Positions 7,112 through 40,581 of a stretch of DNA of 42,443 bases are shown here, one piece after another. Numbering within the stretch: the first letter of the stretch is position 1; each line of letters begins with the position of its first letter. This DNA comes from Elusimicrobia bacterium RBG_16_66_12. Lineage in GTDB: Bacteria > Elusimicrobiota > Elusimicrobia > UBA1565 > UBA9628. Below the pieces are notes generated by a model. The model was not told where the DNA came from. It did no database searches and was given only the letters and a program-made list of their open reading frames with translations. Location: positions 31,855-74,297 of the forward strand of contig MGUL01000041.1 of the NCBI GenBank assembly GCA_001800005.1, in the 5' to 3' direction. Both the position numbers and the translations under genes were made by a program.

Positions 7112-7114
7112 CGA

Positions 7115-7229: not shown

Positions 7230-7234
7230 TTCGA

Positions 7235-9221: not shown

Positions 9222-9248
9222 CAGAGTTAGAAGCTTCAGGCTTTAGAG

Positions 9249-11981: not shown

Positions 11982-12047
11982 CGCCGTCTTACCAAGCACT
12001 TGTGCCGACGCGCGCTTTCTTCGGCAGGTCTGAAATCGATTAGCTGA

Positions 12048-15394: not shown

Positions 15395-15398
15395 AATT

Positions 15399-24106: not shown

Positions 24107-25597
24107 TCAACATGAACCCCGAATCTTCTGGAGCTTGGCGAGAATCTTTACCATAGCGAACGTATCTTGACCGCAGTAAATCTTGAGATTCCTCACAGTC
24201 TTCTTCCGCTCTGCCGCCGGGAGATTACCGCTCATCAGCGCAAGAAACGCCAACTGCGCTTGCTCTCCATTGCCGACAGGGAGGTTTTTATAGGTCATGC
24301 TGGGCACCAAGACTGGGAGAACGGCCTTGATCGACCAGCTGCCCTTAAAGGCGGGATCGACATAGAACGACTTCCGAAACGGATCGCCCAGGTCCCATAA
24401 CCGATTGGCCGCAGACAACAACGCTTTGGCCCGCTTAGGGTAAGCTCCCGCCAAACTTCGTAGGCACTGCCCCTCAAATCCAGCGTTGTACGCTATCACC
24501 GTCCCCCGACCTGAGATCGAGGAAGCTAAGCACTCGACCAAACCCGGGCGTGGATCCGACCGCCCGTCTCCCAGATACTCAACGTGCTTGATAGGTGCCC
24601 CCTCGGTTTCCTGGACGTGGATCGAGGCTTGAAATGGCATCTGCTGGAACGGCCGCAGGCCGTCGTAAGGAGGAATGGCAGGATTTAGAGTTTCAAAATC
24701 AAGGTAGTGGAGCGGATACACAAGGGTATCCAGTAATTCGCCGATTGCGACTTTCTCGATATGAGCCTTCTTCGTCTTCTCGCAGAGGACTTGGATTTCC
24801 TGCGCTCTTGAAAGTGGAAAGTCCTCCGGTACCTCTGCGATCTTGAGAACCCCTCGGCCTTTGAGTTGAATAATCTTCCCTTCACGAATGCGAACCAAGT
24901 CGTAAATGGAGTAGTCTGGAAGACGGCGCCAGCAATGCTCCTGAAAGCTGCATTCATACGGCGAACTACAGTGAGGCCCGATATCGATCTTCGGAGAAGC
25001 GGACGACGATAAGACTCTATGCAACCGGCGAACCTCCGCAGGGACCGCTTTTATGAACGGCTTCAATTTCACGGTGAGGTTGACCAGCGTAAAAAACGAC
25101 TTCGGATTAATAGGGCCACGACGGACGTATTGATTGTTGACATGCATGAGGATGGCCCGGCGCAGCCGGAATCCGGCCCCCTCCAGAATGTAGGCCTGTA
25201 TCGCTAAATCCTGAAGATATACATCGTTGACGTCCGTCGCTCCTTTGACCTCTACAAGATCCCAGGTGCCGTCCGCATTCCGATTGAGGATATCGGAACG
25301 AACCAATGTCTTATCGAATAGCGCGGCAGCCTCATAAATCGTTCGCGCGCCTGAATTGACTGCAGCAGCTGTCGAATCGAGCGCGTGTTGCTGATGCAAG
25401 TAGTCGGCCGTAATATCGACACCACCGGGGAAGCGCGCCCGCGCGAGTCGCCCAATAGCATGCCCTTGATCGAAATTGCGTTGAAGTCCAGGTGGACTCG
25501 GCGGGATGAGATCTTTTCTGTTGCGGTAAAGCCAAAGGGACTTCGGGCATTGCAGGCCGCGGACGTACTGCGACTTCGATAGGACGCCGGACCCCAT
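24107..25597 (-). CDS. DUF2779-family protein (N-terminal RecB/Cas4-like PD-(D/E)xK nuclease plus C-terminal RNase H-fold exonuclease-like domain)
   Basis: The N-terminus is LSKSQYVRGLQCPKSLWLY. The nuclease core is WDLVEVKGATDV...YLQDLAIQAYIL. The DUF2779 hallmark is LHYLDFETLNPAIPPYDGLRPFQQMPFQASIH. The start overlaps the DUF429 stop (TAATG at 25595-25599). Confidence 0.8.
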   Translation of the reverse strand: MGSGVLSKSQYVRGLQCPKSLWLYRNRKDLIPPSPPGLQRNFDQGHAIGRLARARFPGGVDITADYLHQQHALDSTAAAVNSGARTIYEAAALFDKTLVRSDILNRNADGTWDLVEVKGATDVNDVYLQDLAIQAYILEGAGFRLRRAILMHVNNQYVRRGPINPKSFFTLVNLTVKLKPFIKAVPAEVRRLHRVLSSSASPKIDIGPHCSSPYECSFQEHCWRRLPDYSIYDLVRIREGKIIQLKGRGVLKIAEVPEDFPLSRAQEIQVLCEKTKKAHIEKVAIGELLDTLVYPLHYLDFETLNPAIPPYDGLRPFQQMPFQASIHVQETEGAPIKHVEYLGDGRSDPRPGLVECLASSISGRGTVIAYNAGFEGQCLRSLAGAYPKRAKALLSAANRLWDLGDPFRKSFYVDPAFKGSWSIKAVLPVLVPSMTYKNLPVGNGEQAQLAFLALMSGNLPAAERKKTVRNLKIYCGQDTFAMVKILAKLQKIRGSC

Positions 25598-26442
25598 TAT
25601 TCTGTCCTCAGTAGCCCGGCTCCAGCCTTCGGCAGCCAGATAGCTGAATGGTGATCTCCGAATGCGATCGCTCGATCGCTCGCAAACTCAACGCCTACCC
25701 ATGCGCATACGACAGCATCCAATACGTCTTCGATCGCTTTGAGGCCCGGGGCCATACCCGGCTTCTCGAGGATTGTTAATGGGTCTGGGACCAACGCTGA
25801 GACACCGTGAATCCGCTGGCCCAAGGCAGCCCGGAGTTCGCCAAGTTTCTCTGCGACGAACCGGAACCGATCTATCGACATGAGCCCAACGTGATCCTTC
25901 GTGTACGCCCACCTACGCGCGACCTTGTACGGCAAACGATAATCAAGGCCGATCAGCTCGATGATGGCTGGGTGCGGATATGTCTCCAAGAAACATCCAG
26001 TGCGGACTGTGGCCCCAGCGGCCGCAAAGCTAAGTCCCAGCGCTCTAAGGGCATCAAAAACGATAGCCGCCTGCTTGCCCGGACGGTCCGGACTCGGCGA
26101 ATGTGTTCCCGCGCCACGCCCTGAGTATTGTCTTGAGATAGCATCGTCGGATGGCCGACGCCTAACAATACGCTTAGCGGATAGCGGCATATCAACAACA
26201 GCTATATCGACGCGCCCAATCCGAGCGAGCATACCAGCTGAACCTAAATGGGCCTTCGCCGACCAAACAGGAGTCTGGCCAATCTCTGCAAAGGAGCGTC
26301 CCACCCAAACCAACGTCGGCCGCCGGCCTTTGACATAATCAACCAAGGCAAGCCCCGAAGGGTTCTTCGTTGTCCACGCCGCGTCAAAGCCAAGAATCCT
26401 TAGACAGGCCATGGGCTTGCCGGCCTCTGAGACATCCCTCAT
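25597..26442 (-). CDS. DUF429-family protein (predicted RNase H-fold nuclease)
   Basis: The motifs RILGFDAAWTT, AVVDMPLS, LETYPHPAIIELIG...YK and IEDVLDAVVCAWVG follow the DUF429 pattern (GxD...DxP...ExxPh...DxxDA). An alternative start at ATG 26412 (MACLRILGFD) is possible. Confidence 0.75.
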   Translation of the reverse strand: MRDVSEAGKPMACLRILGFDAAWTTKNPSGLALVDYVKGRRPTLVWVGRSFAEIGQTPVWSAKAHLGSAGMLARIGRVDIAVVDMPLSAKRIVRRRPSDDAISRQYSGRGAGTHSPSPDRPGKQAAIVFDALRALGLSFAAAGATVRTGCFLETYPHPAIIELIGLDYRLPYKVARRWAYTKDHVGLMSIDRFRFVAEKLGELRAALGQRIHGVSALVPDPLTILEKPGMAPGLKAIEDVLDAVVCAWVGVEFASDRAIAFGDHHSAIWLPKAGAGLLRTE

Positions 26443-29400
26443 CAGTGTCCTGACCGAGGGCTTCGACGCGGGGTGCTCACTTCCACGGACTTGCGTTCAG
26501 GATGGCAGCATTTCGGATCTGCCGGAGATGGATCAAGTCGAGTTTGAAAAGGGTTGCCGGCACGAATAGATTTGTGCAAGTCATCGTAAATCTCAAGTAT
26601 GACACGCTTGGTCCGATAATCGCCGCCGAACTTCTCTTCATCCTTCCGCCTTACGAGTGGGAAAGTATCCATTATGTGCTCGATAGCGTGGCGCGGCGTC
26701 GGAAACACCTGTGTGAGGTTATCGGGTTGACGCCGCCACTCGTCTTCGGTGCCGAGGTATAGATGGAAGAACGCGGCGTCAAGTTCACATCGAAGCAAGA
26801 ATCGACGTTCGGCATCCCACTTAAAAGGTGGCCCGCTCCATCCGCAATCAGCGGCAAATGGCTCCAGATCCCACGCGGTATAGGTCAACTCTAACGCGCG
26901 GGGAAGAAGCCAATCTTTAGTAAGCAACTTCTTCTTCTGTGGTTTCCCACTTATACTCCACGGGCATATCGAGTCGAAGATTGCAGGAGAGAGGACGGGG
27001 AGTTGCCTGAAAACGTTGTATTTCAAATGCGTTCCGCCTACCTTCTGTCGCGCCGCAAAATCCGACACGAATGAGTCAAGGCAGGCTGGAAGCAACGCTA
27101 CATTTTCTGCAGACGCCGCCGCGGGGAACATCAGGAGAAAAGTGTCGCCACAGGCCGACAGCGGAATAACAGCGGAGATGAGGGTTCTTTCGTTCGTGCT
27201 ATTAGTGATGTCTCTCCACCCAAGGAGCCACTTCCTCTTCCATGAATCAGGAATTGTGGACGATACTTCTTTGCCGGGCACCCAGTCATGTGGCTGAATG
27301 CAGAACATGGGATCTTGCAGCTTCGATATATCCGGCTGCGGAAGTATCCCGACATTCAGCTGCGCCTGAGTCGCCCCATCGTAAGTCGAAAACCTGTGAT
27401 TAAACTGGTGTAGCATCTTAGCCTCATAAAGGGGCAAGTAAGCTAAACCATCTTTCTCAAATTTATTTCCCACAAGCTCCCAACCGTCCGAGGCTAGCTG
27501 CGCACGGGTTCGGAACAGGTGCGAATCGTTCGCCATATGAAACATCGCGCTAAAGGTCAGCCCCCACTGGTTGTCTTGGGGTGCTTCTTCTCGAATCAGC
27601 ACCGGATTTCGCCGATGTAGGGCTTTGCAAATTTCCGCGTCCCGGCCCGATCGGAATACCGGGCAGTTCTTGGCATTGGGATTCAAAAGCAATATTTCAT
27701 CTGCCGTAAGTGAAAACTTCCTCTCACTGTTCTGCACTTCATCTGGATGTCTCGCATAGAAAATGAATTCCGCGACGTCGGATGGTGCAAGGCGCCCACC
27801 AAAAATTAAGAGGCAGAATTTCATGGCGTGGTGAACGCCCGGAAATAAGAGATCTTCGTTTTCAAAACTCCAAAGGCTTGCAAGCGATTTATGTGACACG
27901 ATGTCTTGAAAGAAGAACTTCGTTGTCTCGTCCGTTGCGATTCCTGTAGGCAACACACAGCCGACGCGCCCTTTCGGACCTACATGGTTCTTCATTCCTT
28001 CCGCAAAAATGGCGTAAAGGTTAATGTCACCTCGTCCGCAAAGCGGATAGCGGCCACTATCGCGCATGAAGTGGCTTTCGCCTTCTGACCGGCGGACCGC
28101 AATCTGGAACTGTTCGCGCAGGGCCCGGTCCCCTGGCTCCGCGGAGTCGCTCAGCCGATTGATCAGGCGTTTTCTTTCAGCCGCATTCGGTGCATTTGCG
28201 ATGTCGGGACGTCGCTGGGCAAACCATTCCTTCTCTTGAAGTTTGACCCGTTCCCAAGGCGGGTTACCCAAAATTGCATCGAACCCTCCGCGAACAAAGA
28301 CCTCCGGAAACGCAAGATGCCAATGAAAGAAGTGATGACTTTCCGCGAGGCGCTGGACTTCGTCGAGTAGCGGCTGGTCGTGCTTGGATACCTGGCCATC
28401 GGCTAAGGAGTTAATCAATCCCTGAGTGATCCCGATTACACTCCGCTCATTATCCGGTTCACCGAAATATTTGCGCATGACGAAGGCGGAACACCATACA
28501 TCCGCAAGTCTCTTTTTCTGCCGGAATTCTTCGGTCCGCTCACTCTCTAGAAAGGCTCTTTCTTTACGGTGAACATCCTCTGGGCGGTCGTCGGGCAATT
28601 CGTCAAGTGCGGCGGCGGCTTGCTGCAGGCGTTCTTGGGTTTTAACATCCTGCGTGGCGAACAGATCACCAAAGCCACTGCGCTCGGCCTTATTCCGCTT
28701 CCTCAGAAGCGTGCAAGCCTTCTTGTCGTCCCCCTCGATCGCAGTAAAAGCATCGTCGGGCAAACCGGCGGAAATCAATTCTGGCGTGGTCCCAAGCAAG
28801 CTATTGCCCACACGAATGTGATGGTCGAGGAATGAAAGTGGCTTGCCAGGTTCAACTGCCTCAAGCCAGAGAGCGACACGGCAGAGCTCTACCGACATCG
28901 GATTGATGTCAACGGCGTATATGCAATGGCTAATAACCTGCCGCAGAGCGTGGCGCAGCTGGTCAGGCGCCGGTTCGTCGTCGCCGGCACGCACAAGCGC
29001 CAGACGACGGGCGATTCGTTGAGCCGCCGCAATGAGAAAGTGACCGCTCCCACAAGCTGGGTCGCAGACTTTCAGTGACAAGATGGCCGCCTCGGCGCTA
29101 GGAAATCCGAGGGTTTTGTAGTTGCGCAAGCGATTACTCAGAACGGGATTGAGGGCGCTGTCTAGCAGACAGTCCACCAGACTAGCAGGCGTGTAGTAGC
29201 TCCCGGAGGTCTTTCTATCGTTACCGGCAGCCTGCTTGAAGCTGAAACGGGGTACAGGCGAGGTCAGGACTATAGGATGCAGCTCTAAAAGGCTCTCATA
29301 GACTGCCCCGAATTCCTCCGTCGCAAGAGCTCCAAAATTCACTGGGAGCCTTTGCTTGGTTTTGGGGTCGTCAAACGAACATAGCCGGTCAAGAGCATGG

Positions 29401-30566
29401 AGAAGCGCGGAGTTACTCAGAAGGCATGTGCTTAGCGGTCCAAGGCTCTGAGGATCGAACAACTGTCCCCCGAACGCTGTTGTACCAAGCCGAGCCCCTT
29501 GTTCGGGATGTTCAAACAGCTCAAAAGTAGACAGGAGGGACAGCCAGGCATCACAGTGTCTCTCAGTCTTGAGGCCTCGCGTTCGCGCCAAACGACGCAG
29601 CCGTTGCACGCTATAGTAATCAAAGTAGGTGCGCAACTTCGCGACTGGCGTTTCCTTGGTGAAAATCAGGCCGCGATCCTCTACTACATTTAGAAATAGC
29701 AGGCGGTAGATCAGGCGCAATAAGAAGCCGAAGAATACTGTGTGTTCTAAAGTTCCAGCATCTATCTGCCCGCGGAGGGCCTTGTTTTCTGGATGTGCGA
29801 TAAATCCGGTGCCAAGGATTTCCAGCGCCTCGGTCACGGCCGTGCGTAATCCAGCACGAATGCGAGTCCCCTGCTCAATTGTGTCCTGATGATATCGCTC
29901 GATCAGGCTCTCAGCCGCGGTGCTATTCGTAACCGGAAGCCGACTAGCGTGCAACAATCGAAAGAGAATCGCAAAATCAGAAAAAAGGCCGTCAGTGAAG
30001 ATCCGATCGAGATCGAACTCCAGGTAGCTCAGTTTAATGAGACGTGAACTGTTGCGCAGCAAGCGCAATACGCGACCATTGGTGGCAAGGCCGTAGAGTT
30101 GTTCGCTCAAGTTGAGATATTCCTGAACTAGGCCGTGAGCCGACATGCGCAGCGTGGCGTTGACAGGCTTGCGGTCGAGCGCAGAGGGTTCGCGATAGCC
30201 GACAATCTGCACAGGTATTTGAGCTCGGTTCGAAGCGCGATGTGAAATATTGTAATTCTTGCCGTTTAGTTCGGTTCCCTTGGGTTGATACTCGAGCTGA
30301 TAGCCCAGCAGCCCTAAGAGGGGCATCATCCACTGCTGGCGCGTCTCAGTCGTGGCAGGCGAGTCAGCCTTGAGCGTGTCGAGTTTGCGCTGGAAGATAC
30401 GCCAATAGTCCTGAGCGTCGGCCCAGGCGCGGGCAATCTCGTCCTTAACCTTGGCGTCTGAATCTAGATTGAAATCTACGGGACGTTGCCCCGGCGCCTC
30501 CTCGATCCGTTCGAAGATATCAGATGAAAGAATCGCTCCTTCGATGCGGATACTAGGATAGTTCAC
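26442..30566 (-). CDS. Large N6-adenine DNA methyltransferase (Eco57I/PglX/DrmMI-like gamma-class, 1374 aa)
   Basis: Motif I is LKVCDPACGSGHFLIAAAQRI. Motif IV is FDAILGNPPWERVKLQEKEWF. Long N- and C-terminal extensions are present. The GTG start at 30566 forms a GTGA overlap with the upstream SNF2 stop. Confidence 0.9.
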   Translation of the reverse strand: MNYPSIRIEGAILSSDIFERIEEAPGQRPVDFNLDSDAKVKDEIARAWADAQDYWRIFQRKLDTLKADSPATTETRQQWMMPLLGLLGYQLEYQPKGTELNGKNYNISHRASNRAQIPVQIVGYREPSALDRKPVNATLRMSAHGLVQEYLNLSEQLYGLATNGRVLRLLRNSSRLIKLSYLEFDLDRIFTDGLFSDFAILFRLLHASRLPVTNSTAAESLIERYHQDTIEQGTRIRAGLRTAVTEALEILGTGFIAHPENKALRGQIDAGTLEHTVFFGFLLRLIYRLLFLNVVEDRGLIFTKETPVAKLRTYFDYYSVQRLRRLARTRGLKTERHCDAWLSLLSTFELFEHPEQGARLGTTAFGGQLFDPQSLGPLSTCLLSNSALLHALDRLCSFDDPKTKQRLPVNFGALATEEFGAVYESLLELHPIVLTSPVPRFSFKQAAGNDRKTSGSYYTPASLVDCLLDSALNPVLSNRLRNYKTLGFPSAEAAILSLKVCDPACGSGHFLIAAAQRIARRLALVRAGDDEPAPDQLRHALRQVISHCIYAVDINPMSVELCRVALWLEAVEPGKPLSFLDHHIRVGNSLLGTTPELISAGLPDDAFTAIEGDDKKACTLLRKRNKAERSGFGDLFATQDVKTQERLQQAAAALDELPDDRPEDVHRKERAFLESERTEEFRQKKRLADVWCSAFVMRKYFGEPDNERSVIGITQGLINSLADGQVSKHDQPLLDEVQRLAESHHFFHWHLAFPEVFVRGGFDAILGNPPWERVKLQEKEWFAQRRPDIANAPNAAERKRLINRLSDSAEPGDRALREQFQIAVRRSEGESHFMRDSGRYPLCGRGDINLYAIFAEGMKNHVGPKGRVGCVLPTGIATDETTKFFFQDIVSHKSLASLWSFENEDLLFPGVHHAMKFCLLIFGGRLAPSDVAEFIFYARHPDEVQNSERKFSLTADEILLLNPNAKNCPVFRSGRDAEICKALHRRNPVLIREEAPQDNQWGLTFSAMFHMANDSHLFRTRAQLASDGWELVGNKFEKDGLAYLPLYEAKMLHQFNHRFSTYDGATQAQLNVGILPQPDISKLQDPMFCIQPHDWVPGKEVSSTIPDSWKRKWLLGWRDITNSTNERTLISAVIPLSACGDTFLLMFPAAASAENVALLPACLDSFVSDFAARQKVGGTHLKYNVFRQLPVLSPAIFDSICPWSISGKPQKKKLLTKDWLLPRALELTYTAWDLEPFAADCGWSGPPFKWDAERRFLLRCELDAAFFHLYLGTEDEWRRQPDNLTQVFPTPRHAIEHIMDTFPLVRRKDEEKFGGDYRTKRVILEIYDDLHKSIRAGNPFQTRLDPSPADPKCCHPERKSVEVSTPRRSPRSGH

Positions 30567-33436
30567 GCTCCATCCTCCGGAAGAAGGATGTAAATGCCGA
30601 GCTGATCCATCGGCAGTACGGGATAAACCACCTGAAAGCGCTGCTTATCCATCAAGGCACTAAACCGCTCGTGTGCCGCAACCAGGCGCTTGGATTGTTT
30701 TTCCGCAATCCCATCGAACTCAGCACCGAGCTTATCAAGCAATTTTAGTTCATTGACTAGAAAGCTTGCGCGGGCCTGTGGGGACAGATCGCTAGATGCA
30801 CGAGCAACGGCCAGGATATCTTTGGCCTCCGCGTGATCAAGGAACTCTTTCTGATCAGGAGCTCCGCGCCAACCCCAAAGCAACATTTCTTCGGCGACAA
30901 TCTGAGGCCCCCCTTTGCCTTGTTCGATTACGTTTCGGCACCGAAAGAGCAACAACGTCGTCTTCTTGGCGACTTGCTTAGTGCGGATGACTGCAGCACG
31001 CGCAGCGCGCTTGTCCTGCCGGCCGAGGGTATTCGCCATCACAAGCTGACAAAGCTGTTCCACGAAGCGATGGTTGCGGCCAAGATAGTGATAGCCCTCT
31101 GCCGTCGGAGACTCAAAGCTCACCTTCACGATTCTGCCTGCCGGCAACAGATCGACAAGCTGCGCGGGAAGGTTCCCCATAACAAGTCCGTAGCCGTCCT
31201 TCTCTTTCGCAATCTGGACGCCGAACAGGCCCGAAAGAGCGGCAGTAACGAACTCCTCGACAGCCTTTACATTGCCGATGGCCTCATCGACCGCATGCAA
31301 ATCTTCCGCAATCTCCTGCGCCTTGATTGCATTTTGGGCGAAGATGCTGCGGGATGCTTTTTCTCGCTCGGCAGCCTCGTCGATTTTTCGACTGACATTA
31401 GCTTTGGCTAGAGCCGCCTCGCCGAACTCGGTGAAGTCGAACAGCATTCGTTGGTCTGGGCCGCGCTTTCGTTCGATGCGTCGGTCAGGATTAAGAAGTA
31501 GCGCTTTGGTAATAGTGTCGATGATGCTCTGCGAATCTTCTGGAAATGGCACGTTGATGCCCGTCGCCCGTTTAATCTCTCGCACTTTACGCAAGAGCAC
31601 ATCCAGCACGATCCCATCGATGGGGTTATCTGTGCCATAAAGCAGGCACGCCTTAACTTCAGGTGCCTTCTGGCCGAAGCGGTCAACGCGGCCTTCACGC
31701 TGCTCCAGACGGTTGGGGTTCCAAGGAAGATCGTAGTGCAGAACGCCCGTGAAGGAATCCTGAAGGTTAATACCCTCGCTAAGGCAGTCGGTTGCAATTA
31801 GAACGCGCGGCCTGTCGCCTGCCATTTCGGCAATCCGATGCTTCCGAACATCATCGGGAAGTTCGCTCGTCACTACACGCAGATCGAGCTTCGGGTATTT
31901 CTTCCGGAGAACGGGTTCCAAATGCTTACCAAGGTAGTTCGCCGTTTCAATATAACGGCAGAAAACAACCGGCCTGAACCCTTTTTCAATCCAGTCTTCA
32001 AGAACGATCGCAGCCGCAAAAAGCTTCTGATCGTTCTTTATGTCCCCCAATTTCTCTAGGCGCTCAGCAAACTGACGCAGCTGTCTGCGCTGATGATCAC
32101 TCCATTCAGCATAATCCACGACCTGACTAAGCGCGTTGTCGCTCTCGAAGCCGAAGTCGGGGTCACGAACAGGGTTTTCCGCCTCTGGATCGGATTCCGT
32201 CAAAGCGTCCTCAGCGCCGGCCTCTACCGCGGTTCCGAGCTTCCCAGAACGCGCGTTGAGCATTTTTACACCGGCAGCCGGACTAGACATCACCCCACGC
32301 AGCAAAGCCAATGCAGTCCAATATTGGACTCGCTTCGTTCTCTGGCTAGATCCGTCGGGCACGACCATCTTTTGTGCGAAAGCTAATATCTCTTCGAAAA
32401 AAGCTGCATATTGACGGGATAGGTCGTAAGGCCACTCGAATGCTTCACGCGTAGGGAATGGAGTATCCTCACCCATCCACTTCTCTACGTCGGCACGCTT
32501 ACGTTGGACAAAGTGCTGGGCGAGCTCGCGCCGCTCCGCCTGGGAGGAGTTTGGCAGATCGAGAGTCTCGAATTGAGGTTTGAGTAGTCCTAATAGAGAC
32601 TGGAACTCGTCGGGCTTGCCGCTGTGTGGAGTAGCCGTAAGAAGAACTAAGTGCTGGCCGGGCTTTGCGGCGATTTTGCTTATCAGATGGAAGCGTTGCT
32701 GCTGAGCAGAAGAGGCGCCAGCGGGTCGCGCGCAGGTGTGCGTTTCGTCAACAATCACGAGTTCCGGGCACTGCTCGATAAAGACATCTCTGCGATTGTC
32801 GGATTTGATGAAGTCGATGCTGATGATCTGATAGGGGTAGTAGTCATAAACACTGGCATCGCCTTGAATCTGACGATCCAGCCGAGCTTGAGTATTAGAA
32901 CGAATGATCACCGCTTCAATGTCGAGTTTAGACCGGATTTCCTCTTGCCACTGCTCGCAGAGATGAGGCAAACAAACGACCGCAAAGCGCTTGATCTTCC
33001 GTCGCTCAAGAAGCTCCCGCACGATGAGCAACGCTTCAATCGTCTTACCGACACCGACGTCATCAGCGATAAGTAGCCGCACAACGTCCTGCCGTAGCGC
33101 CATGATCAATGGAACGATTTGGTATGCGCGAGGACGGAATGAAAGCTTGGCGAGCGCACGGAACGGTCCCGCGCCGTTGCGGAACGCCAGACGAGCAGAG
33201 TCGTATAGGAGCCGGGCAGTACTTACGTCCCCAAGATCGCTCGGTTCCGGCGCATTGAATCGGGCGTCCACGGGCTGGTCGCGCTCTATCTTGAGTGGCA
33301 GGTAGATGCCGGCAATCTCTTCGTCAGACCCGCCCAGAGGCTTGACGATGAGCATATCCGGGTCGTTCGACGGCATGACCACCCACTCGCGGCCCCGAAG
33401 CGAGACGAGCTCACCCGGTTGTCGGAGAGCTTTCAA
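30563..33436 (-). CDS. SNF2-family helicase (first copy, 957 aa; DrmD-like)
   Basis: Motif I is LLIADDVGVGKTIEALLIV. Motif II is LVIVDETHTC. Motif III is LVLLTATPHSGKPDEF. Motifs V/VI are VLIATDCLSEGINLQ...VLHYDLPWNPNRLEQREGRVDRFGQ. The TTG start at 33436 forms a TTGA overlap with the helicase stop. Confidence 0.9.
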   Translation of the reverse strand: MKALRQPGELVSLRGREWVVMPSNDPDMLIVKPLGGSDEEIAGIYLPLKIERDQPVDARFNAPEPSDLGDVSTARLLYDSARLAFRNGAGPFRALAKLSFRPRAYQIVPLIMALRQDVVRLLIADDVGVGKTIEALLIVRELLERRKIKRFAVVCLPHLCEQWQEEIRSKLDIEAVIIRSNTQARLDRQIQGDASVYDYYPYQIISIDFIKSDNRRDVFIEQCPELVIVDETHTCARPAGASSAQQQRFHLISKIAAKPGQHLVLLTATPHSGKPDEFQSLLGLLKPQFETLDLPNSSQAERRELAQHFVQRKRADVEKWMGEDTPFPTREAFEWPYDLSRQYAAFFEEILAFAQKMVVPDGSSQRTKRVQYWTALALLRGVMSSPAAGVKMLNARSGKLGTAVEAGAEDALTESDPEAENPVRDPDFGFESDNALSQVVDYAEWSDHQRRQLRQFAERLEKLGDIKNDQKLFAAAIVLEDWIEKGFRPVVFCRYIETANYLGKHLEPVLRKKYPKLDLRVVTSELPDDVRKHRIAEMAGDRPRVLIATDCLSEGINLQDSFTGVLHYDLPWNPNRLEQREGRVDRFGQKAPEVKACLLYGTDNPIDGIVLDVLLRKVREIKRATGINVPFPEDSQSIIDTITKALLLNPDRRIERKRGPDQRMLFDFTEFGEAALAKANVSRKIDEAAEREKASRSIFAQNAIKAQEIAEDLHAVDEAIGNVKAVEEFVTAALSGLFGVQIAKEKDGYGLVMGNLPAQLVDLLPAGRIVKVSFESPTAEGYHYLGRNHRFVEQLCQLVMANTLGRQDKRAARAAVIRTKQVAKKTTLLLFRCRNVIEQGKGGPQIVAEEMLLWGWRGAPDQKEFLDHAEAKDILAVARASSDLSPQARASFLVNELKLLDKLGAEFDGIAEKQSKRLVAAHERFSALMDKQRFQVVYPVLPMDQLGIYILLPEDGA

Positions 33437-36400
33437 CGGACCTTCCGGAAAATATCCGGCCGCTGGGCGATCCTAGCCCCTAGATTCTCTCGATAATGCC
33501 AGACCCACACTTCGCCCCCTTGAGCGATAATTGCTTGGCGCTGGCTCTCGTCGCGGGCCTGGACCTCGGGAGTGTCATGTGGCGATCCATCACAGAAGAC
33601 CCAAAATCGCGGCTCGTAATAGAAGTCAGGCTGGCAGTAAATCCCTTCGATTCTTTTTTGCGCCGCATCAGGGAGGCGAAAGCCGCCGTCGTAGAGGTGC
33701 TTGATGAATGCGCGCTCGGTCGACGAGTTGGGGTCGAGATGCCGCAACATCGCTTGATGCTGCTCTTCGTAATCCCGAAACCCGGTATTCGTCTGAATCT
33801 CGATGTCGCACAGCGCAAGTTTATCCAGCGCCTCGCGAATTGCAAAGCGATCGATAACGTGATGGTCGCGCTGGTTATAGTAACTGAGCAGATCGTCGTA
33901 GGATGCCGGCGCCAGGTACTTCGGGTCGTCATAGCGGCAGATCTTCTTCGCCGCTTCGATTACTTTGCGGAATGTTTGAACGTTTTCAACGAATTGCGAA
34001 AGAATCCCGAGGCTTCCTTCGGAAGCTTCGTAGAGAAGAATGTTAGGCGCCTCGGCATCACCAACGGAAACCACTCCGATCTCACTCGGTTCCACCTGAA
34101 AGACCGTCTCTATCGCCCTCTTGAGCGCGTGCTGGAGCGTAATGACCCCCGCCCACGCCAACCCAAGCGGCTGTATAGGCTCGATATACATCGCATCAGC
34201 TACATTCGAGGTGAAGAGTTTGACCAGCCGGAACTCTTCACGCATTGTGTCATCGGGTTCGGGCATCGAACTCTGCCAATTACCGGAGGTCAGGCCTATC
34301 GGGAAACCCTCCACTTTTTGCGTGCGCCACTTCATGTTCACGTGGATGAGCCGCGCCGCGGGTATATAACGCAGGTTTAGAAGAGCGGTCCCGCTCGATC
34401 GGGCGATCGCCTTGCGGACCCGATCTAATGGCCCGCCATCAACCGCGAAATAAGTCTGGATATCAAAGCCTCGGGAGACACGCTCCTCCTCCTCACATGA
34501 AATCCGATCGACCTCCTCTGCGCGAGACTCGGACATTTCCAGCAGATCATGAAGATGCTCTTTGTTCGCATTGTCGGCGAGATTCACTCCGGAGAAGGGA
34601 CAAATCTCCAAGTCCTTCTGTTCACCGGTCAGGTAGTATCCCGCCTTGGTGCTGATCTTCGCTTCAGTCAGCGAGGACTCTGCATCCTGCAACACCATCT
34701 GATCCACCTTATACTTCCGGCCGTTGTGATAAATGACGTTAAGTGGACCGAATTCACGCAGTGCGATCGCGCGGGGGCGAGAGATGAACTCACCAGATGA
34801 GCCGCCGGTCGGCACGAAAATGCGAATCGGTAGCCGCGTGAAGTTATACCCAGGAAGGAATCCCTCGGAGGCGAGGTAACGATACGGGTAAAATTCTGAC
34901 AGGGTGGCAGATCCGGAGGTGTCGTTTCGCAGGAGATTGAGCTGACGATTGGCCTGATCCTGGTGGCGCTTGTACTTCTTGTATTCGTCACTGCTCACGC
35001 TGAGTCGTCCACTGTCGATCGGCTGAGTGGCCCGCGTAAGCAGCGACCGCGCGGAGCGATATAGGCGACGCCAGCGTTTCATCGCATCATCGAGCTTATC
35101 GTCGAGTTTGCTCAGGTTCTGATCAAGCCAGGCATCTGAATACCACGAATTCGCTCGCGTATCGAGATCCGTCTCAAAGTCTTTGATTACGCGCCGAAAT
35201 GTTGCCTTGATTGCGGTATAAGCCGCTGGAGAAATCTTCAGCCCTTCACGAACACCCGGCGCGAGAGGCATGTCGGCATTGTCATCGCTGACAAAGCGCA
35301 TCAGCGACGGCCGGTCGCCGCCTTCTGAGTCCAAACCAGGCAACCCGATCTCACTGATTGCCAGCGCATTCAGGTGCGTAACGAGAAGCTCTTGATTGCA
35401 CAAGTCCAGTCTGGGCGCCTGTACGGCGCCGGCGACCAGCTCCGCTTGCTGCTGGAAGTAGTGGCGATCATGAGCAGAGTAGCTCGAGCAATAGGTGAAC
35501 ACTAGAGCCCCTTGGCCGCTTCTTCCTGCGCGTCCCGAGCGCTGCGTATAATTCGCAGCGTTGGGCGGAGCGTTTCGCATATGGACCACACTCAAGCCGC
35601 CGATATCGATACCAAGTTCCATCGTTGGCGAGCAGAAAAGCGCGCTAATCGATCCACTGCGGATACGCGCCTCGTCGAGTTGCGTCTTCGCCTCGTCGAC
35701 ATACCAATCCGCGCGGAATCGGTCTTCCCGCTCTTGTCGGGCTTCCGTATTGAGTTGGCCCGTGTGATCCTCTGCCCGGAGCCTTTTGCCCTGCGAGACA
35801 TCCCGGCGATACATATCGCGAAAGAAAACATTCGGCTTCGGTTTCTGATCTTTGTAGGAACGGCGTTTGATGACATCCGGTTTTACCGCTTCACCATCAC
35901 CGAGCTTCCATTGGATCTTCTCGATCCGAAGACGGAATACCGGAACCTCGACATTCTTTTCGCTTCGCGCGCTCTGCTGAGATAAATAGTCAGCTTCTTT
36001 GAGCTTACCCATCAGCTTCATGATGAAGTCGCGGTAAAGGTCGCCTTTGAGATCGAGCTCGATCCCCTTATAGTTAGCGAAGTGCTTTATGTACTTCCCG
36101 AGAGCGCTGGCCCGTCCCATGCTTTTTGAGGCCAGACGCGCGGACTTGTGGAGCGGCTCAAGGCGGATGACACAAGGCTCACGAAGATCTTCTTTCGGAT
36201 CGAGCGTCCACGGTGCTTTAAGCTGCTCGCGGAAGTGCTTTTCAAATTCCTTCAAGCGCACGGCCGTCAGGAAGTTCTCGCTGTGGAGCGCATACTCCAA
36301 GCGGAAGAAGTCGAGGATCGTGGAGAGGAAATCCTTCCTATCCGCGTGAGACAGGTTGGAAACCAAGGGCATATCCGCCCAGAATTTATCCTCGGCGACG

Positions 36401-38604
36401 ATCTCGCCAAGATTTACGTAGTCAATATTCAATAGGCCGCACTGTTCTAAGTTCGGGAGCACAATACGCCAACTGCGCCGAAGATCAGAAACCGCCCGAT
36501 AAAAGAGATATGCCTGGAACGTCTGCTCGTAATCTCGACGAACCGTCGCGAGCGCAGGCTCCTGATCCCGGTTGCCAAAGTCGAGAAACGGCAGGGCGAG
36601 CGCCTTAAATACGGCCTCGCCGATATTGGCATAGGTCAATGTCTCGTTGGGTGCGCTTGCAAGCGCCTTGCGTATGCCCGCGCGAAGCTGAACAACTTGC
36701 ACGAAATCGTTGAAGTGTCCGGCCTGAAGCGCGGCGTCCTGTCGGTTATCTGTGAAGCTTAGGAGCTTCTGGTCCCGGGTTTGATACCCGGCGTCGTTCA
36801 GCTGATTTAGAATCGAGAAGGCCGTGATCGTGGTCGAGGTACTACGACCTTCGCTGCCGAGCTTCGTGAGCTTGGTCCCCTCCCGCATCTTGGCGTCGAA
36901 GAACACGCCCCCCGTAGGATCGAAAAGGAGCGGCGCCTCCATGAACCAGCCCCAGAACTTCATTGGTTTAGAATCTGAGCAGTTTCCAAATTCATCGAAG
37001 TGGATTTTTTTCGGGAAAAACGCAGCCTTTTTCGAATCGGGGACTGGGCCGCTCTTCGTTTGCCTAAACCACGCCTCGGGCAAATAATCGGAATCGACAG
37101 CGGGGTCCCACACCTCCTCTCCAACGATCAAATACCCGTCCGTCGTCTCTCCCTCCTCATCCTCGCTACTCTCACGGAACTCACGCGGTTCCAGTTGATC
37201 ACCGGCGCGAGACACGCAGATGAAAGGGAACCCAGTCGCGCGACTAAAGACATTCGGGAAGATCGGCTTTTTATTCTTGTCGTCTTGCTTGTAAATTCCC
37301 GGCTCGAGCGTGATGAAGCGGTTCTCATCCTGATCAAGCGTCGTGTAGACAGCACCCGTCTGGGCAATGAACTGGTGCAGTCGGAAAGGCAGCAGCGTGT
37401 AGCGAGATCCGCTGTTCTGAACTTCCTTGTTGATCGAACTAATCCACAGCAGCATGCTCTCTAGGCATTTTCGGCAGGCGTCCTCAGTTAGACCGGAGTC
37501 CTCAACGAGACGGGCGATTACAGTGCTGATGCGATGTGGCCGCTGACGCACCAACTTGCCTTCTCGTTCTTCGAGGGCTATCCGATTCTCGAGCCATATC
37601 GCGACGGGGTGCACTTTAAGTTTTGCCGCGTCGTATTTGGGGTTTAGGCCCGCGTTGATCGCTGCGGCGAGCGCCGAGCGTGTCGGGAGAGCGCCCGAAG
37701 GCTCAAGTGAGCGACTGAGCGTCTCTGTTATGACCTGATCGGGGGTGAATGGGCGTCCGAACATCGTTGTGGCAACCCGCGCGACCTGTTCTCGCTGAGA
37801 GACGAGGCTGCCAACAGAGACCATGGTCGCGGATGTGCCAATGCACGCGACCGGCTGCTTGCATTGCGCTCGAATTCTTCGGATGAGCATTGCAACGTCC
37901 GCGCCCTGGCGACCGCGGTAAGTATGCAGCTCATCAAATACTAGATAACGGAGATTTTCATAAATTGCATCACGGATCGGACGCTCCTGCACTCGCGTGA
38001 GCAGGAGTTCCAACATCATATAGTTCGTCAGAAGAATCTGGGGCGGATTCTCCCGCATTGCTATGCGGCGCTCTTCCTTTTCCTGGCCTGTATACTGGCC
38101 GAAGCTGATCGGGAAAGCCTTGCCCGTGCTCTTCTCGTAATTCTCTTTATATGTCTTGAATTCGTTGGTCTGAGAATTGATCAGGGCGTTCATTGGATAG
38201 ACAACAACCGCCGTACCACCCTTAGAACCTGGTTCAGTAAGAAGGCGATGGAAAATCGAAGCGATGTAGGTAAGCGATTTACCGGAGCCTGTTCCAGACG
38301 TCACAACGAAATCCTGGCCTGCAGTGCCGAGCTTGATCGCCTCCAGCTGGTGGCGATATAGCGAATAGCCTTTGAAAATGTCAGCCGTAGCGCCGTGCAA
38401 CACGCCGCCGGCGGCAACGGTACCAATGCCGCCAACCGTCTCGTAGGACGGATTGAATTGGAGCAGCGGCTGGGGCCAGAGTTTTCCTTCATCAAGCGCA
38501 GCCTCAACCGCTTCACGGATTGCCGGATCGGCGATGTTTATGAAGCTGCGGATGTAGCTGGCGTAGTCGCCAACAATCTTGGAATGAGTTTCGAAGACGT
38601 TCAT
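33433..38604 (-). CDS. 1723-aa SF2 (Lhr/YprA-type DEAD/DEAH) helicase fused to DUF1998 and a C-terminal Vsr/DUF559-like PD-(D/E)xK domain (DrmA+DrmB-like or DruE-like)
   Basis: Walker A is FVVTSGTGSGKSLTYI. Motif II is LVFDELHTYRGRQGADVAMLIRRI. Motif III is GTSATM. Motifs V/VI are SPTMELGIDIGGL...YTQRSGRAGRSGQGALVFTY. The DUF1998-type region is YRYLASEGFLPGYNFTRLP...ILLYEASEGSLGILSQF. The last ~98 aa (33436-33729) read STERAFIKHL...YCQPDFYYEPRFWVFCDGSPHD...RDESQRQAIIAQGGEVWVW. Confidence 0.9.
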   Translation of the reverse strand: MNVFETHSKIVGDYASYIRSFINIADPAIREAVEAALDEGKLWPQPLLQFNPSYETVGGIGTVAAGGVLHGATADIFKGYSLYRHQLEAIKLGTAGQDFVVTSGTGSGKSLTYIASIFHRLLTEPGSKGGTAVVVYPMNALINSQTNEFKTYKENYEKSTGKAFPISFGQYTGQEKEERRIAMRENPPQILLTNYMMLELLLTRVQERPIRDAIYENLRYLVFDELHTYRGRQGADVAMLIRRIRAQCKQPVACIGTSATMVSVGSLVSQREQVARVATTMFGRPFTPDQVITETLSRSLEPSGALPTRSALAAAINAGLNPKYDAAKLKVHPVAIWLENRIALEEREGKLVRQRPHRISTVIARLVEDSGLTEDACRKCLESMLLWISSINKEVQNSGSRYTLLPFRLHQFIAQTGAVYTTLDQDENRFITLEPGIYKQDDKNKKPIFPNVFSRATGFPFICVSRAGDQLEPREFRESSEDEEGETTDGYLIVGEEVWDPAVDSDYLPEAWFRQTKSGPVPDSKKAAFFPKKIHFDEFGNCSDSKPMKFWGWFMEAPLLFDPTGGVFFDAKMREGTKLTKLGSEGRSTSTTITAFSILNQLNDAGYQTRDQKLLSFTDNRQDAALQAGHFNDFVQVVQLRAGIRKALASAPNETLTYANIGEAVFKALALPFLDFGNRDQEPALATVRRDYEQTFQAYLFYRAVSDLRRSWRIVLPNLEQCGLLNIDYVNLGEIVAEDKFWADMPLVSNLSHADRKDFLSTILDFFRLEYALHSENFLTAVRLKEFEKHFREQLKAPWTLDPKEDLREPCVIRLEPLHKSARLASKSMGRASALGKYIKHFANYKGIELDLKGDLYRDFIMKLMGKLKEADYLSQQSARSEKNVEVPVFRLRIEKIQWKLGDGEAVKPDVIKRRSYKDQKPKPNVFFRDMYRRDVSQGKRLRAEDHTGQLNTEARQEREDRFRADWYVDEAKTQLDEARIRSGSISALFCSPTMELGIDIGGLSVVHMRNAPPNAANYTQRSGRAGRSGQGALVFTYCSSYSAHDRHYFQQQAELVAGAVQAPRLDLCNQELLVTHLNALAISEIGLPGLDSEGGDRPSLMRFVSDDNADMPLAPGVREGLKISPAAYTAIKATFRRVIKDFETDLDTRANSWYSDAWLDQNLSKLDDKLDDAMKRWRRLYRSARSLLTRATQPIDSGRLSVSSDEYKKYKRHQDQANRQLNLLRNDTSGSATLSEFYPYRYLASEGFLPGYNFTRLPIRIFVPTGGSSGEFISRPRAIALREFGPLNVIYHNGRKYKVDQMVLQDAESSLTEAKISTKAGYYLTGEQKDLEICPFSGVNLADNANKEHLHDLLEMSESRAEEVDRISCEEEERVSRGFDIQTYFAVDGGPLDRVRKAIARSSGTALLNLRYIPAARLIHVNMKWRTQKVEGFPIGLTSGNWQSSMPEPDDTMREEFRLVKLFTSNVADAMYIEPIQPLGLAWAGVITLQHALKRAIETVFQVEPSEIGVVSVGDAEAPNILLYEASEGSLGILSQFVENVQTFRKVIEAAKKICRYDDPKYLAPASYDDLLSYYNQRDHHVIDRFAIREALDKLALCDIEIQTNTGFRDYEEQHQAMLRHLDPNSSTERAFIKHLYDGGFRLPDAAQKRIEGIYCQPDFYYEPRFWVFCDGSPHDTPEVQARDESQRQAIIAQGGEVWVWHYRENLGARIAQRPDIFRKVR

Positions 38605-40581
38605 TTAAGCTAGCCACTCCGGCGGCACAAGCTTCTTTCCGCTGCGCCACTCTTCTACAAGATGAAGGTCAGGAATTTGGCCCCAGACATCCGAACCTGC
38701 ATGGTCGAGCACAATAATTTGCATCCGGTCACCGCTGTCCCGCACGACCGCGGACATGAGGCTAAACACTTTCCGAACTGCCTCGAGATCTTCGTCCTTA
38801 AGCTTTGGATCCTCGTCCTCTTGTGACGCTTTACCCGCAAGCCGTACAGGGAAGTAGACTTGGCTCGGCTGGTCGTAGACGACAAAGTTTGGCACAGGGC
38901 TGAAGGGAAGCCCGAGGAAAAACTGATGTAGCCCCAAGGACACGGCAACGTGATAGGAGAGCCAGTTTGAACCGCTCCCGATCTCCCATAGGAAGTCTTC
39001 TCTATCGATGCCTTTCACCTTGATCGAAAGGTCCGGGATTGAAAGGGAAATCGGATCGTTGGGCCGTTCAGCATCCAATTTTGGGATTAACTTTCCCGCA
39101 TTGAGGCTCACCGCATCCAGGGCGCGCTTTGTCTTTGCGCGGATCGCGCCCTCCGAAATGGCGAGTTCGAGGGCGGCCACCTGTTCCTCGAGCGACTTGA
39201 CCTCGTTATCAAGATTGCTGTCGTGCCCAATCTGGGAATAGAGTTGGAGCGATTGCTCAAGGTTTCCGATGAAGCGTGAGACTCGAAGGGAATCGTAGTA
39301 GGTCTGCTTTGCTTGAGAGGATCGCTTTTCAACAGCGTCTCGCCTAATCTTTATTCCATCAAGCTGCTCCGTAGTCTGCCGGATCTCAGTCTTCACTCGC
39401 TCCAACTCGCGATCAAAGGCAGCAGGCACGTTGCCGGCCTGCCCCGCGGACTCCTCAACGGTGCGAAGCGCTGTGCAGAGTGTCGCTAACCGCTCTTTCG
39501 CTTCTGTGATAGCATGCCCACATACAGGGCAGTCATTGCCGCCGCTGTGCATTGTGGCGAGCCAGTCCGAGATTTTGAGGCGATCTCGTTGAAGATGCAG
39601 GGCTCCCTCATATTCCTTGCTCGTCTTCCTGAGAGTCTCCATCTCGCCAAGTCGTCGCCTTAGCCCCGAAAGACGCATGGAGACCTGGGATTCCTCGGCC
39701 TGAAGGCCCACGAACTCTTGAACTGCCTCTTCAACCGTCTCTGATGTGACCTTATTGCCTGATCCGGCAGGACGCTCGACTACCTTTGAAAGCAAATCAA
39801 CAAGCTGGGCTTGGCTAGCATTCTGAGGTATTGGTTGATCGACAAGTCCTAATTCCCGTGCTTCTGTGGCCTTGGCCCGAATCTCAGCCATCCATCGTTC
39901 AGAAACCTGGCGCGCCGTCGCCAACTCGCCCTTCTTCCGGCGAAGCTCACGCCTTAATTTCTCAAGCTCATGCTGTTTAGCGAGGAGCTGCGGGGTAACG
40001 GCATTCAGGACATACGGGAAGATAGTTTGAAGTTTCTGCGAGTGCTCAGGCCGATCAGCCTTGTAGAACAAGATGTCGGGGTTCGCGACGACGTTTTGCG
40101 GCTGGAACAGAAACGGGCCGAGGTCCCTGAAACTTGGTCGAGACAGAAAGCTCGCGTCAGAGTCGTTGGGATCGAAATCTAGATTGGTCAAGCCTGCGAG
40201 TTCATCAAGCATTCGCTTTACAGCTCGAACGTTGGAGTTGCTTTGCGTGATCTGCGCGGGGATATCGACCTTGGGCGCCTCAACAACGAACATATCGCCC
40301 GTCGATTTCTGTGAACCAGGCTCTCTACGCGCGAATAACTTCTCGCCGGCCGCAGTCTGAACAACGACACCAAACCATTCACATGCGTTGCGGATGGTTA
40401 ATACCGGAATCGAGCACTTGTCGGATCCAAGACAGTAGTCGATTATTGGAATGATGGCCGATTTGCCCGTACGCGAGGAGCCGCTTATCACGTTTACGCC
40501 GTTGGTCTTAAACGGGAGTCGTCTCGGCAAAATTCCGGACTTCTTCGGCCACAGGACTATCTCTTTGATTTGGAATTGCAT
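38605..40581 (-). CDS. ABC-3C system ABC ATPase (DUF3732; SMC/Rad50-like with coiled coil and CxxC hook)
   Basis: Walker A is VISGSSRTGKSAIIPIIDYCLGS. The coiled coil spans ~aa 200-480 with CPVCGH at its midpoint (aa 351-356). The DUF3732 hallmark is FVVYDQPSQVYFP. The Walker B/D-loop is MQIIVLDHAG. The TAA stop (38605-38607) directly abuts the ATG of the helicase gene. Confidence 0.85.
   Translation of the reverse strand: MQFQIKEIVLWPKKSGILPRRLPFKTNGVNVISGSSRTGKSAIIPIIDYCLGSDKCSIPVLTIRNACEWFGVVVQTAAGEKLFARREPGSQKSTGDMFVVEAPKVDIPAQITQSNSNVRAVKRMLDELAGLTNLDFDPNDSDASFLSRPSFRDLGPFLFQPQNVVANPDILFYKADRPEHSQKLQTIFPYVLNAVTPQLLAKQHELEKLRRELRRKKGELATARQVSERWMAEIRAKATEARELGLVDQPIPQNASQAQLVDLLSKVVERPAGSGNKVTSETVEEAVQEFVGLQAEESQVSMRLSGLRRRLGEMETLRKTSKEYEGALHLQRDRLKISDWLATMHSGGNDCPVCGHAITEAKERLATLCTALRTVEESAGQAGNVPAAFDRELERVKTEIRQTTEQLDGIKIRRDAVEKRSSQAKQTYYDSLRVSRFIGNLEQSLQLYSQIGHDSNLDNEVKSLEEQVAALELAISEGAIRAKTKRALDAVSLNAGKLIPKLDAERPNDPISLSIPDLSIKVKGIDREDFLWEIGSGSNWLSYHVAVSLGLHQFFLGLPFSPVPNFVVYDQPSQVYFPVRLAGKASQEDEDPKLKDEDLEAVRKVFSLMSAVVRDSGDRMQIIVLDHAGSDVWGQIPDLHLVEEWRSGKKLVPPEWLA

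Follow-up and report, generated by a model that had tools for sequence, protein, structure and literature searches.

Three consecutive genes in a 42,443-nucleotide (nt) stretch of DNA from Elusimicrobia bacterium RBG_16_66_12 (hereafter the window, to whose full length all coordinates refer) very probably constitute an ARMADA Type I anti-phage system. ARMADA, the disARM-related Antiviral Defense Array, is related to DISARM, and its Type I was named by Bell et al. (2025, bioRxiv 10.1101/2025.09.15.676423, PMC12458937). The triad occupies window positions 26442-38604 on the minus strand and encodes three large enzymes:

33433..38604, minus strand: helicase, 1723 residues, first gene of the triad, an ArmC-like YprA-family helicase-nuclease
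30563..33436, minus strand: SNF2 ATPase, 957 residues, second gene, an ArmA-like protein of the RapA/BrxHII/DrmD type
26442..30566, minus strand: N6-adenine methyltransferase, 1374 residues, third gene, an ArmB-like protein of the Eco57I/PglX/DrmMI type

It is by this succession of helicase, SNF2 and methyltransferase genes that ARMADA Type I is defined (Bell et al. 2025, PMC12458937). The assignment corrects a plausible misannotation, in that the window holds a complete ARMADA Type I triad and the genes around it appear to be independent modules.

A preliminary description of this DNA, which took the triad for the core of a class 1 DISARM-like system, was right about its architecture. The genes are three large, translationally coupled open reading frames (ORFs) encoding a helicase-DUF1998 protein, an SNF2 protein and a methyltransferase with DPACGSGHF and NPPW motifs, as the ORFs and their Pfam domains bear out, and they stand in the order given there, with TTG and GTG starts embedded in 4-nt overlaps. 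Where the helicase gene gives way to the SNF2 gene, the sequence is CGTTGAAAG, in which a TTG start and a TGA stop share 4 nt; at GCGTGAAC, the junction of SNF2 and methyltransferase genes, a GTG start likewise shares 4 nt with a TGA stop. A 4-nt overlap is the commonest junction type in related loci, found at 43 helicase/SNF2 and 41 SNF2/methyltransferase junctions and usually reading ATGA. The start positions of the triad genes are plausible because homologues align from residue 1, and ORFs this long, whose domain E-values reach 1e-191, could not plausibly arise by chance. All three genes belong to a run of 11 co-directional minus-strand ORFs, from 42343 to 18141, in which every intergenic gap is at most 10 nt and overlaps of 1 or 4 nt join most neighbours. 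The same 11 genes were obtained when the source scaffold was annotated independently.

The triad recurs as a unit across many phyla. A scan with the SNF2 protein, using one genome per species, found 154 relatives, of which 80 loci were kept with flanks of up to 10 kilobases (kb) on each side. These loci, with 59-85% identity, come from Planctomycetota, Acidobacteriota, Nitrospirota, Verrucomicrobiota, many Proteobacteria and other phyla. When the 11 window proteins were searched against them by tblastn, the order helicase, SNF2, methyltransferase was found in essentially all informative loci, and none of the window's other eight genes was found in any of the 80. When the 813 ORFs in these loci were clustered, the three triad families, and no others, occurred in more than 19 loci. 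As the triad is the only co-occurring set in the 80 loci, we regard it as a self-standing, horizontally mobile three-gene unit which, judging from these comparisons, is very widespread, and the window as a defence island. The catalytic motifs are intact in all four of its enzymatic domains (helicase, nuclease, SNF2 and methyltransferase).

The link to a named system comes through the helicase, which is 70% identical over 100% of its length to a protein of Candidatus Methylomirabilis lanthanidiphila (P0118; VUZ85671.1/MBZ0168146.1). Table S1 of Bell et al. 2025 (PMC12458937) lists both accessions under the label 'ARMADA Type I helicase'. The Methylomirabilis locus (L088) holds the same triad, with proteins of 1704, 956 and 1237 residues, amid purine-biosynthesis and other housekeeping genes. 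There is no UvrD or RelE match in the 11 window proteins and no ArmD-like family recurring in the 80 loci; absence of the ArmD-like UvrD/RelE gene indicates Type I rather than Type II.

Within the single 1723-residue helicase ORF, Pfam detects DEAD (2.6e-25, from residue 84), Helicase_C and MZB (DUF1998; 5.3e-7), so that helicase and DUF1998 are joined in a manner equivalent to a DrmA-DrmB fusion, as the preliminary description had recognized. Motifs I (GTGSGKS), II (DELH), III (TSA) and VI (QRxGRAGR) are kept throughout related loci, as judged from an alignment of the window protein with 62 relatives (63 sequences):

38275..38295, minus strand: Walker A / motif I GTGSGKS, residues 104-110; GTGSGKS in 61 of the 63 aligned sequences and GTGSGKT in one more
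37924..37935, minus strand: motif II DELH, residues 224-227; invariant in 63 of 63 aligned sequences
33937..34137, minus strand: MZB/DUF1998 domain, residues 1490-1556; Pfam MZB 5.3e-7, without canonical zinc-binding cysteines in this clade
33436..33735, minus strand: predicted Vsr/DUF559-type PD-(D/E)xK nuclease, approximately residues 1624-1723; from AlphaFold2, Foldseek and Pfam matches of homologues

The best PADLOC models for the helicase are DruE3 (1e-77) and DruE1 (5.9e-69), with only a weak match to DrmA (4.8e-13). Among solved structures, two helicases of ~2000 residues come first (8e-41), which we take to be DruE, and YprA/MrfA (6znp) comes next (2e-20); no DrmA chain is listed. Both results would fit a Druantia Type III-like system in which a DruE-like helicase-nuclease is the effector and the SNF2 and methyltransferase genes are an unrelated neighbouring restriction-modification or BREX-like pair, as would the reported occurrence of a Vsr-type nuclease on some helicases of the Druantia III-B-like kind (Bell et al. 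2025, PMC12458937). We nevertheless consider such a system very improbable here. No DruH match exists among the window proteins, the genes upstream being LmuA, LmuC and LmuB, and 4-nt overlaps bind the helicase gene to its SNF2 and methyltransferase neighbours both here and in most of the 80 loci. Moreover, its nuclease is of the Vsr type, whereas that of Druantia III-A is of the PLD type and Pfam finds no PLD domain in the helicase, and the 70%-identical orthologue is classed as ARMADA Type I. The YprA homologue of ARMADA is itself closest to that of Druantia, the helicases of the two systems sharing a clade (Bell et al. 2025, PMC12458937).

A C-terminal Vsr-type PD-(D/E)xK nuclease, predicted to be active, is a feature of ARMADA helicases (Bell et al. 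2025, PMC12458937), and structure prediction indicates that the window helicase has one too. Because the C-terminal segment of the window protein alone had no Pfam match, remote relatives of the helicase were gathered by a profile search of 1.84 billion cluster representatives; 892 were found at E <= 0.001, and of the full-length proteins among the 150 listed, nearly all have 1650-1780 residues. With an alignment of 38 diverse sequences, AlphaFold2 modelled the C-terminal domain of the window protein at a predicted local distance difference test score (pLDDT) of 92.4; a model from a shallow alignment of 21 close homologues, with a pLDDT of 56, was discarded. The top Foldseek match to this model in the PDB is 3r3p, the catalytic domain of I-Bth0305I (probability 1.00; template modelling score 0.60, normalised to the target), which superposes with a root-mean-square deviation of 3.1 Å over 78 columns. 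Pfam matches on the 38 diverse homologous C-termini agree with this fold: DUF559 in 22 of 38 (best 1.9e-5), REase MTES_1575 in 11 and Vsr in one. All three families lie in the Vsr-like branch of the PD-(D/E)xK superfamily. Among the 63 aligned sequences, PDF (residues 1659-1661) is invariant and CDG (1671-1673) and PHD (1675-1677) are nearly so, a pattern consistent with an active site. An hhalign comparison with an approximate E. coli Vsr sequence lined up the PDF and xxHG motifs with a non-significant probability of 0.5%. Bell et al. 2025 (PMC12458937) also report 3r3p, in their case for Vsr-type domains in Druantia and ARMADA II.

The SNF2 protein contains the Pfam domains SNF2-rel_dom and Helicase_C, and its motifs DVGVGKT, DExH and EQREGRVDRFG are kept across related loci. 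Two of these were located in an alignment of 73 sequences (window plus 72 relatives):

33041-33061, minus strand: SNF2 Walker A DVGVGKT, conserved in the alignment
32738-32749, minus strand: SNF2 motif DETH, conserved in the alignment

RapA is its best match among solved structures (1.5e-16). In PADLOC, the model PDLC02853, labelled 'DpdE', matches over the full length at 7e-191, DrmD matches at 1.7e-85, and BrxH models also match; the top NCBIfam family is DISARM_DrmD, with 307.2 bits against a cut-off of 610. A sensitive blastn search with the SNF2 gene found no DNA similarity in 5,426 E. coli genomes, the set used for comparison with ARMADA II. PDLC02853 scores far better than any DrmD model on this ARMADA SNF2 protein; ARMADA-type sequences were apparently used to build it, and it would mislabel ARMADA loci as Dpd fragments. 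The 2023 PADLOC library splits the present triad into DruE, DpdE/DrmD and DrmMI fragments.

The methyltransferase has the Pfam domains Eco57I (3e-16) and N6_Mtase and matches the PADLOC models DrmMI (1.9e-74), type IIG (6.8e-48) and, weakly, PglX. Its main features are:

29037-29063, minus strand: motif I DPACGSGHF, residues 502-510, a sequence motif
28254-28265, minus strand: motif IV NPPW, residues 768-771, a sequence motif
26445..28253, minus strand: hypervariable C-terminal half, residues 772-1374, presumed to serve in target recognition

Motifs I and IV are kept throughout related loci. Residues 1-771 align in all loci, and the remainder aligns only in L005, L021, L035, L075, L076 and L077; column conservation in the C-terminal half falls to 0.08-0.23, and the N-terminal 250 residues are the best conserved. 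After NPPW the proteins, apart from the outlier L021, divide into two main types that can hardly be aligned with each other. The window protein is of the minority type, whose tail it has in common with L005, L035 and L075 and, more distantly, L021. Members of the minority group read DPACGSGHF/NPPW and those of the majority DIACGSGHI/NPPY, and an MmeI_TRD domain is detectable in majority-type relatives; none was detected in the window methyltransferase. This is the pattern expected if the C-terminal half were an exchangeable target-recognition module on a constant, partner-interacting part. Exchange between Type I loci is confined to this half of the protein, which fits a specificity module. 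The preliminary description had found no other methyltransferase in the 11-gene run, and our domain scans with PADLOC, Pfam and NCBIfam likewise detected no second methyltransferase domain among the 11 window proteins.

A BrxHII/RapA-like helicase and a PglX-like methyltransferase are common to ARMADA and DISARM class 1 (Bell et al. 2025, PMC12458937), and the family was named disARM-related because of its resemblance to DISARM class 1 components. The triad could accordingly be read as a rearranged class 1 DISARM system in which a fused DrmA-DrmB, DrmD, DrmMI and a displaced, enlarged DrmC work together. The last of these would be a PLD protein that, just as the preliminary description had it, lies three genes beyond the methyltransferase and is 628 residues long; it has two HxK motifs. 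The PADLOC scores for DrmD (1.7e-85), DrmMI (1.9e-74) and DrmA (4.8e-13), a weak DrmC match on the PLD protein (1.2e-7) and the top NCBIfam rank of DISARM_DrmD for the SNF2 protein all speak for this, and the idea of a class 1-like core holds insofar as the triad includes homologues of class 1 components. Membership in DISARM does not follow, since the NCBIfam scores fail the cut-offs: 307.2 bits versus 610 for DrmD, 13.6-13.8 versus 950-999 for the DrmA models, and 32.5 versus 133 for DrmC_I on the PLD protein. The helicase is far closer to DruE than to DrmA, both in PADLOC and among solved structures; its DEAD domain starts at residue 84, so that the EVE-like domain, trigger loop and jelly roll at the DrmA N-terminus could not be accommodated; and it has its own nuclease. 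The PLD gene is present in none of the 80 triad loci and belongs to a module of its own elsewhere. We therefore give a rearranged DISARM almost no weight. The preliminary description had envisaged sub-threshold DISARM scores coupled with membership in an unrelated, already named system; the scores do fall below the DISARM thresholds and the triad does group with a named system, but that system is related to DISARM.

The assignment to ARMADA Type I must be weighed against features of the window helicase that set it apart from published ones. It contains 17 cysteines and one CxxC motif in the whole protein, and just after MZB it reads APASYDDLLSYYNQ where distant relatives read C..ACY.CLLSY.NQ. 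Full-length cluster representatives at least ~37.5% identical to it almost all have 0-1 CxxC motifs, and most of the more distant ones have 5-7. With the division at about 37% identity to the window protein, ARMADA Type I helicases (the window protein and representatives P0145-P0291) split into a cysteine-poor group, with 0-1 CxxC and the DUF1998 cysteine cluster lost, and a cysteine-rich group, with 5-7. P0118, listed as Type I by Bell et al., has no CxxC motif and belongs to the same cysteine-poor lineage as the window protein. A large zinc-free sub-lineage thus appears to exist within ARMADA Type I helicases.

Several points nonetheless count against the assignment. Zinc-binding modules with CxxC and a four-cysteine DUF1998 cluster are typical of ARMADA helicases (Bell et al. 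2025, PMC12458937); the window helicase, with one CxxC and no DUF1998 cysteine cluster, is unlike the published proteins in this respect. Between RecA1 and RecA2, ARMADA helicases also have inserts of three kinds, BrxA-like, beta-barrel zinc-binding and MarR-like (Bell et al. 2025, PMC12458937). Here the corresponding region amounts to ~690 residues between motif III (residue 257) and Helicase_C (residue 950), and the conserved CxxC motifs described for the beta-barrel insert are absent; the DruE3 model aligns contiguously with the window helicase up to residue 425. As to the nuclease, the Foldseek E-value for 3r3p is just 0.016, the window's own C-terminal 155 or 179 residues have no Pfam nuclease match at E <= 1 or E <= 10, and, in profile searches of PDB sequences, the shallow profile had no match and the deeper one found only 3r3p, at a non-significant E = 0.53. 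Membership in the Type I clade was assigned by proxy, from 70% identity to a listed member, and the PADLOC library used dates from 2023 and is without ARMADA models, so that there is no direct model-based ARMADA call. Finally, the experimental tests reported concern Type II alone (Bell et al. 2025, PMC12458937; mBio 2026, PMC13463889). As a compact three-gene representative of Type I, the window triad is a reasonable candidate for an experimental test.

What the ARMADA Type I triad does can be proposed by analogy with ARMADA Type II, DISARM, BREX and Druantia III; the locus itself supplies the parts list, the intact motifs and the nuclease fold. The methyltransferase would mark host DNA, with its exchangeable C-terminal half determining which short motif is modified. 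Methyltransferase and SNF2 ATPase might then form a surveillance complex that acts with the helicase, which would load on single-stranded regions or ends of unmodified incoming or replicating phage DNA and translocate along it, driven by ATP. The C-terminal Vsr-type nuclease of the helicase would cut this DNA, so that the infection would be cleared directly and the cell not killed. Three elements of this scheme are inferred: what is methylated, how self and non-self would be told apart, and where phage DNA would be attacked. In ARMADA Type II, all four genes are required for protection, as are the Walker motifs of ArmA and ArmC, the Walker A motif of ArmD and the NPPW motif of ArmB, and mutation of the ArmD Walker B or ArmB GxG motif causes partial loss only (Bell et al. 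2025, PMC12458937; mBio 2026, PMC13463889). Defence by Type II is direct and non-abortive, with viability kept and no metabolic shutdown; armB deletion mutants can be obtained and lose protection; and hypermodified phages escape, which suggests unmodified DNA as the target (Bell et al. 2025, PMC12458937; mBio 2026, PMC13463889). DruE of Druantia III is reported to be a helicase-nuclease effector that acts on single-stranded DNA intermediates.

Some of the 80 loci carry additional genes within or next to the triad. Directly after the methyltransferase gene, 19 of them have a weakly LmuB-like, SMC-like ATPase of 650-690 residues (E ~1e-18; for example L001:17070-19106 and L087:22180-24096), and the methyltransferase that precedes it is always long, ~1390 residues or more. 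Such loci may represent a four-gene sub-variant of Type I. In 11 loci (L009, at 12863-14428, L018, L019, L021, L023, L030, L031, L035, L043, L004 and L013), an ORF of 460-540 residues with AlbA_2 (Schlafen-like), HATPase_c_4 and Fic-like_C domains lies between the SNF2 and methyltransferase genes, and in three further loci it lies upstream of the helicase gene. A different ORF of ~200 residues, with no Pfam or PADLOC match, occupies the SNF2/methyltransferase slot in five loci; that it might be a DUF429 relative, like the window ORF at 25597-26442, was ruled out, there being no similarity.

The eight other genes of the run are, by their sequence matches, separate defence modules in the same orientation as the triad:

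41084-42343, minus strand: Lamassu LmuA (PADLOC LmuA, 1.4e-49)
40581-41087, minus strand: Lamassu LmuC (PADLOC LmuC, 4.6e-8)
38605-40581, minus strand: Lamassu LmuB (PADLOC LmuB, 5.1e-128)
25597..26442, minus strand: DUF429 protein, 281 residues, matching the PADLOC single-gene candidate PDC-S44
24107-25597, minus strand: DUF2779/Cas4-like protein, 496 residues (DUF2779)
22786-24096, minus strand: first gene of a trio, 436 residues, with no Pfam domain and no PADLOC model match
20903-22789, minus strand: second gene of the trio, the PLD protein, 628 residues (PADLOC ZacB, 1e-25, over the N-terminal half only; PDC-M27B, 1.5e-10)
18141-20903, minus strand: third gene of the trio, an SNF2-like helicase, 920 residues (PADLOC PDC-M27C, 3e-52; ZacC, 3.4e-32)

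The precomputed Pfam families of the upstream Lamassu genes are CTD7, MC3 and LmuB_C. The HxK motifs of the PLD protein are HPKLHLLAFD at residue 108 and HAKLFVARAG at residue 302. Its family is a rare one: among 5.8 billion proteins, close homologues number about nine. On three unrelated contigs (L082, L083 and L084), the PLD gene lies between genes for a protein of 437-449 residues and an SNF2-like helicase of 921-938 residues, in the same order as in the window; the genes overlap, and no ARMADA component is present. The first proteins of these trios are 38-56% identical to the 436-residue window protein. The PLD trio thus recurs without ARMADA genes, and the PLD protein, which is absent from the 80 triad loci, therefore belongs to an Azaca-like or PDC-M27-like module of its own and is not DrmC, contrary to the preliminary description. 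A homologue of the DUF2779 protein, 39% identical, directly follows the trio helicase in one of these contigs (L084:6049-7533), and the DUF2779 protein may be an optional fourth gene of the trio rather than a stand-alone gene.

Close packing of the run raises the question of whether all 11 genes form one co-transcribed, interdependent super-system in which a single methyltransferase protects the host from several effectors. Besides the gaps of at most 10 nt and the frequent 1- or 4-nt overlaps, this would be in keeping with a CTD7/MC3/LmuB_C-type Lamassu that adjoins an ARMADA helicase 83% identical to the window's in another genome (L086:12900-16071), with the LmuB-like ATPase that follows the methyltransferase in 19 of 80 loci, and with the documented synergy of ARMADA II with Druantia III (Bell et al. 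2025, PMC12458937; mBio 2026, PMC13463889). The eight flanking genes, however, never co-occur with the triad in the 80 loci. The triad is found alone among housekeeping genes in the Methylomirabilis locus, the PLD trio stands alone on three other contigs, and the Lamassu beside the 83%-identical helicase lies downstream and convergent, so that co-transcription is not conserved. To our knowledge, Lamassu and Azaca-type systems are not methylation-dependent. An 11-gene super-system is thus highly unlikely, and the proposal that one methyltransferase marks self for all 11 genes falls, as these genes make up several separate systems.

Under the ARMADA Type I assignment, a functional link between the triad and SMC-type ATPases is possible, to judge from gene neighbourhoods. 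The presence of Lamassu beside the 83%-identical relative and of the LmuB-like ATPase in 19 of 80 loci suggests that the gap-free Lamassu junction of the window might reflect real coupling between ARMADA I and SMC-type ATPases, comparable to the synergy of ARMADA II with Druantia III, and the cysteine-poor Type I lineage might differ in target recognition from the zinc-rich helicases of ARMADA and Druantia. We view this combined proposal as speculative and rather unlikely.

The base composition of the run differs from that of its surroundings. The guanine-cytosine (GC) content of the defence island at 18141-42343 is 54-58%, compared with 65-70% at 1-8000 and 12000-17500, and this lower content is consistent with horizontal acquisition. 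Genes for a 7TMR-DISM histidine kinase and for a sigma-54 activator lie in the 65-70% GC surroundings. The gene at 4322-6067, for a TraG/TraD-type type IV secretion coupling protein of 581 residues, is a hint that the DNA around it may belong to a conjugative or integrative element; neither a transfer RNA gene, as a marker of an integration site, nor an integrase was found within the window, and megablast of the 12-kb triad region against plasmids gave no match. A second islet of low GC content (~50%), at 8400-12000, contains four plus-strand ORFs of 213-297 residues, one with a DUF4238 domain and another with a weak CoiA_N-like match. PADLOC found nothing credible in this islet, the sole match being a borderline REase_II (E = 0.0099) on the ORF at 9249-10124.

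Comparison with known systems places the triad and its neighbours as follows. The PLD trio has a partial likeness to Azaca and PDC-M27, its PLD protein and helicase matching ZacB/ZacC and PDC-M27B/C and its first gene matching no model. With Druantia Type III (DruH-DruE), the triad shares a helicase that is most similar to DruE by sequence models, but in place of DruH it has SNF2 and methyltransferase partners, and its nuclease is of the Vsr type. DISARM class 1 (DrmD, DrmMI, DrmA, DrmB and DrmC) resembles it in having DrmD-like SNF2 and DrmMI-like methyltransferase components and in the relation of its helicase-DUF1998 protein to DrmA and DrmB; however, DISARM uses two genes for the helicase and DUF1998 where the window has one, and the window lacks DrmC, its nuclease being a fused Vsr-type domain rather than a separate PLD protein. 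The experimentally validated relative is ARMADA Type II, the E. coli ArmABCD system, whose SNF2, methyltransferase and YprA-helicase-nuclease families are homologous to those of the window. Type II differs in its order of SNF2, methyltransferase and helicase genes, followed by ArmD (a GajB-like UvrD helicase fused to RelE), and in the extra inactive EEP and Vsr domains of its helicase. ARMADA Type I has the same three gene families as the window, in the same order, and likewise no fourth, ArmD-like gene. The window triad departs from it in its cysteine-poor helicase without the DUF1998 cysteine cluster, in a methyltransferase with the minority C-terminal half and no detected MmeI_TRD where relatives have a detectable one, and in being packed without gaps into a run of other defence genes. 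We regard these as minor, lineage-specific deviations, and the locus as a typical ARMADA Type I system of the kind described in 2025.

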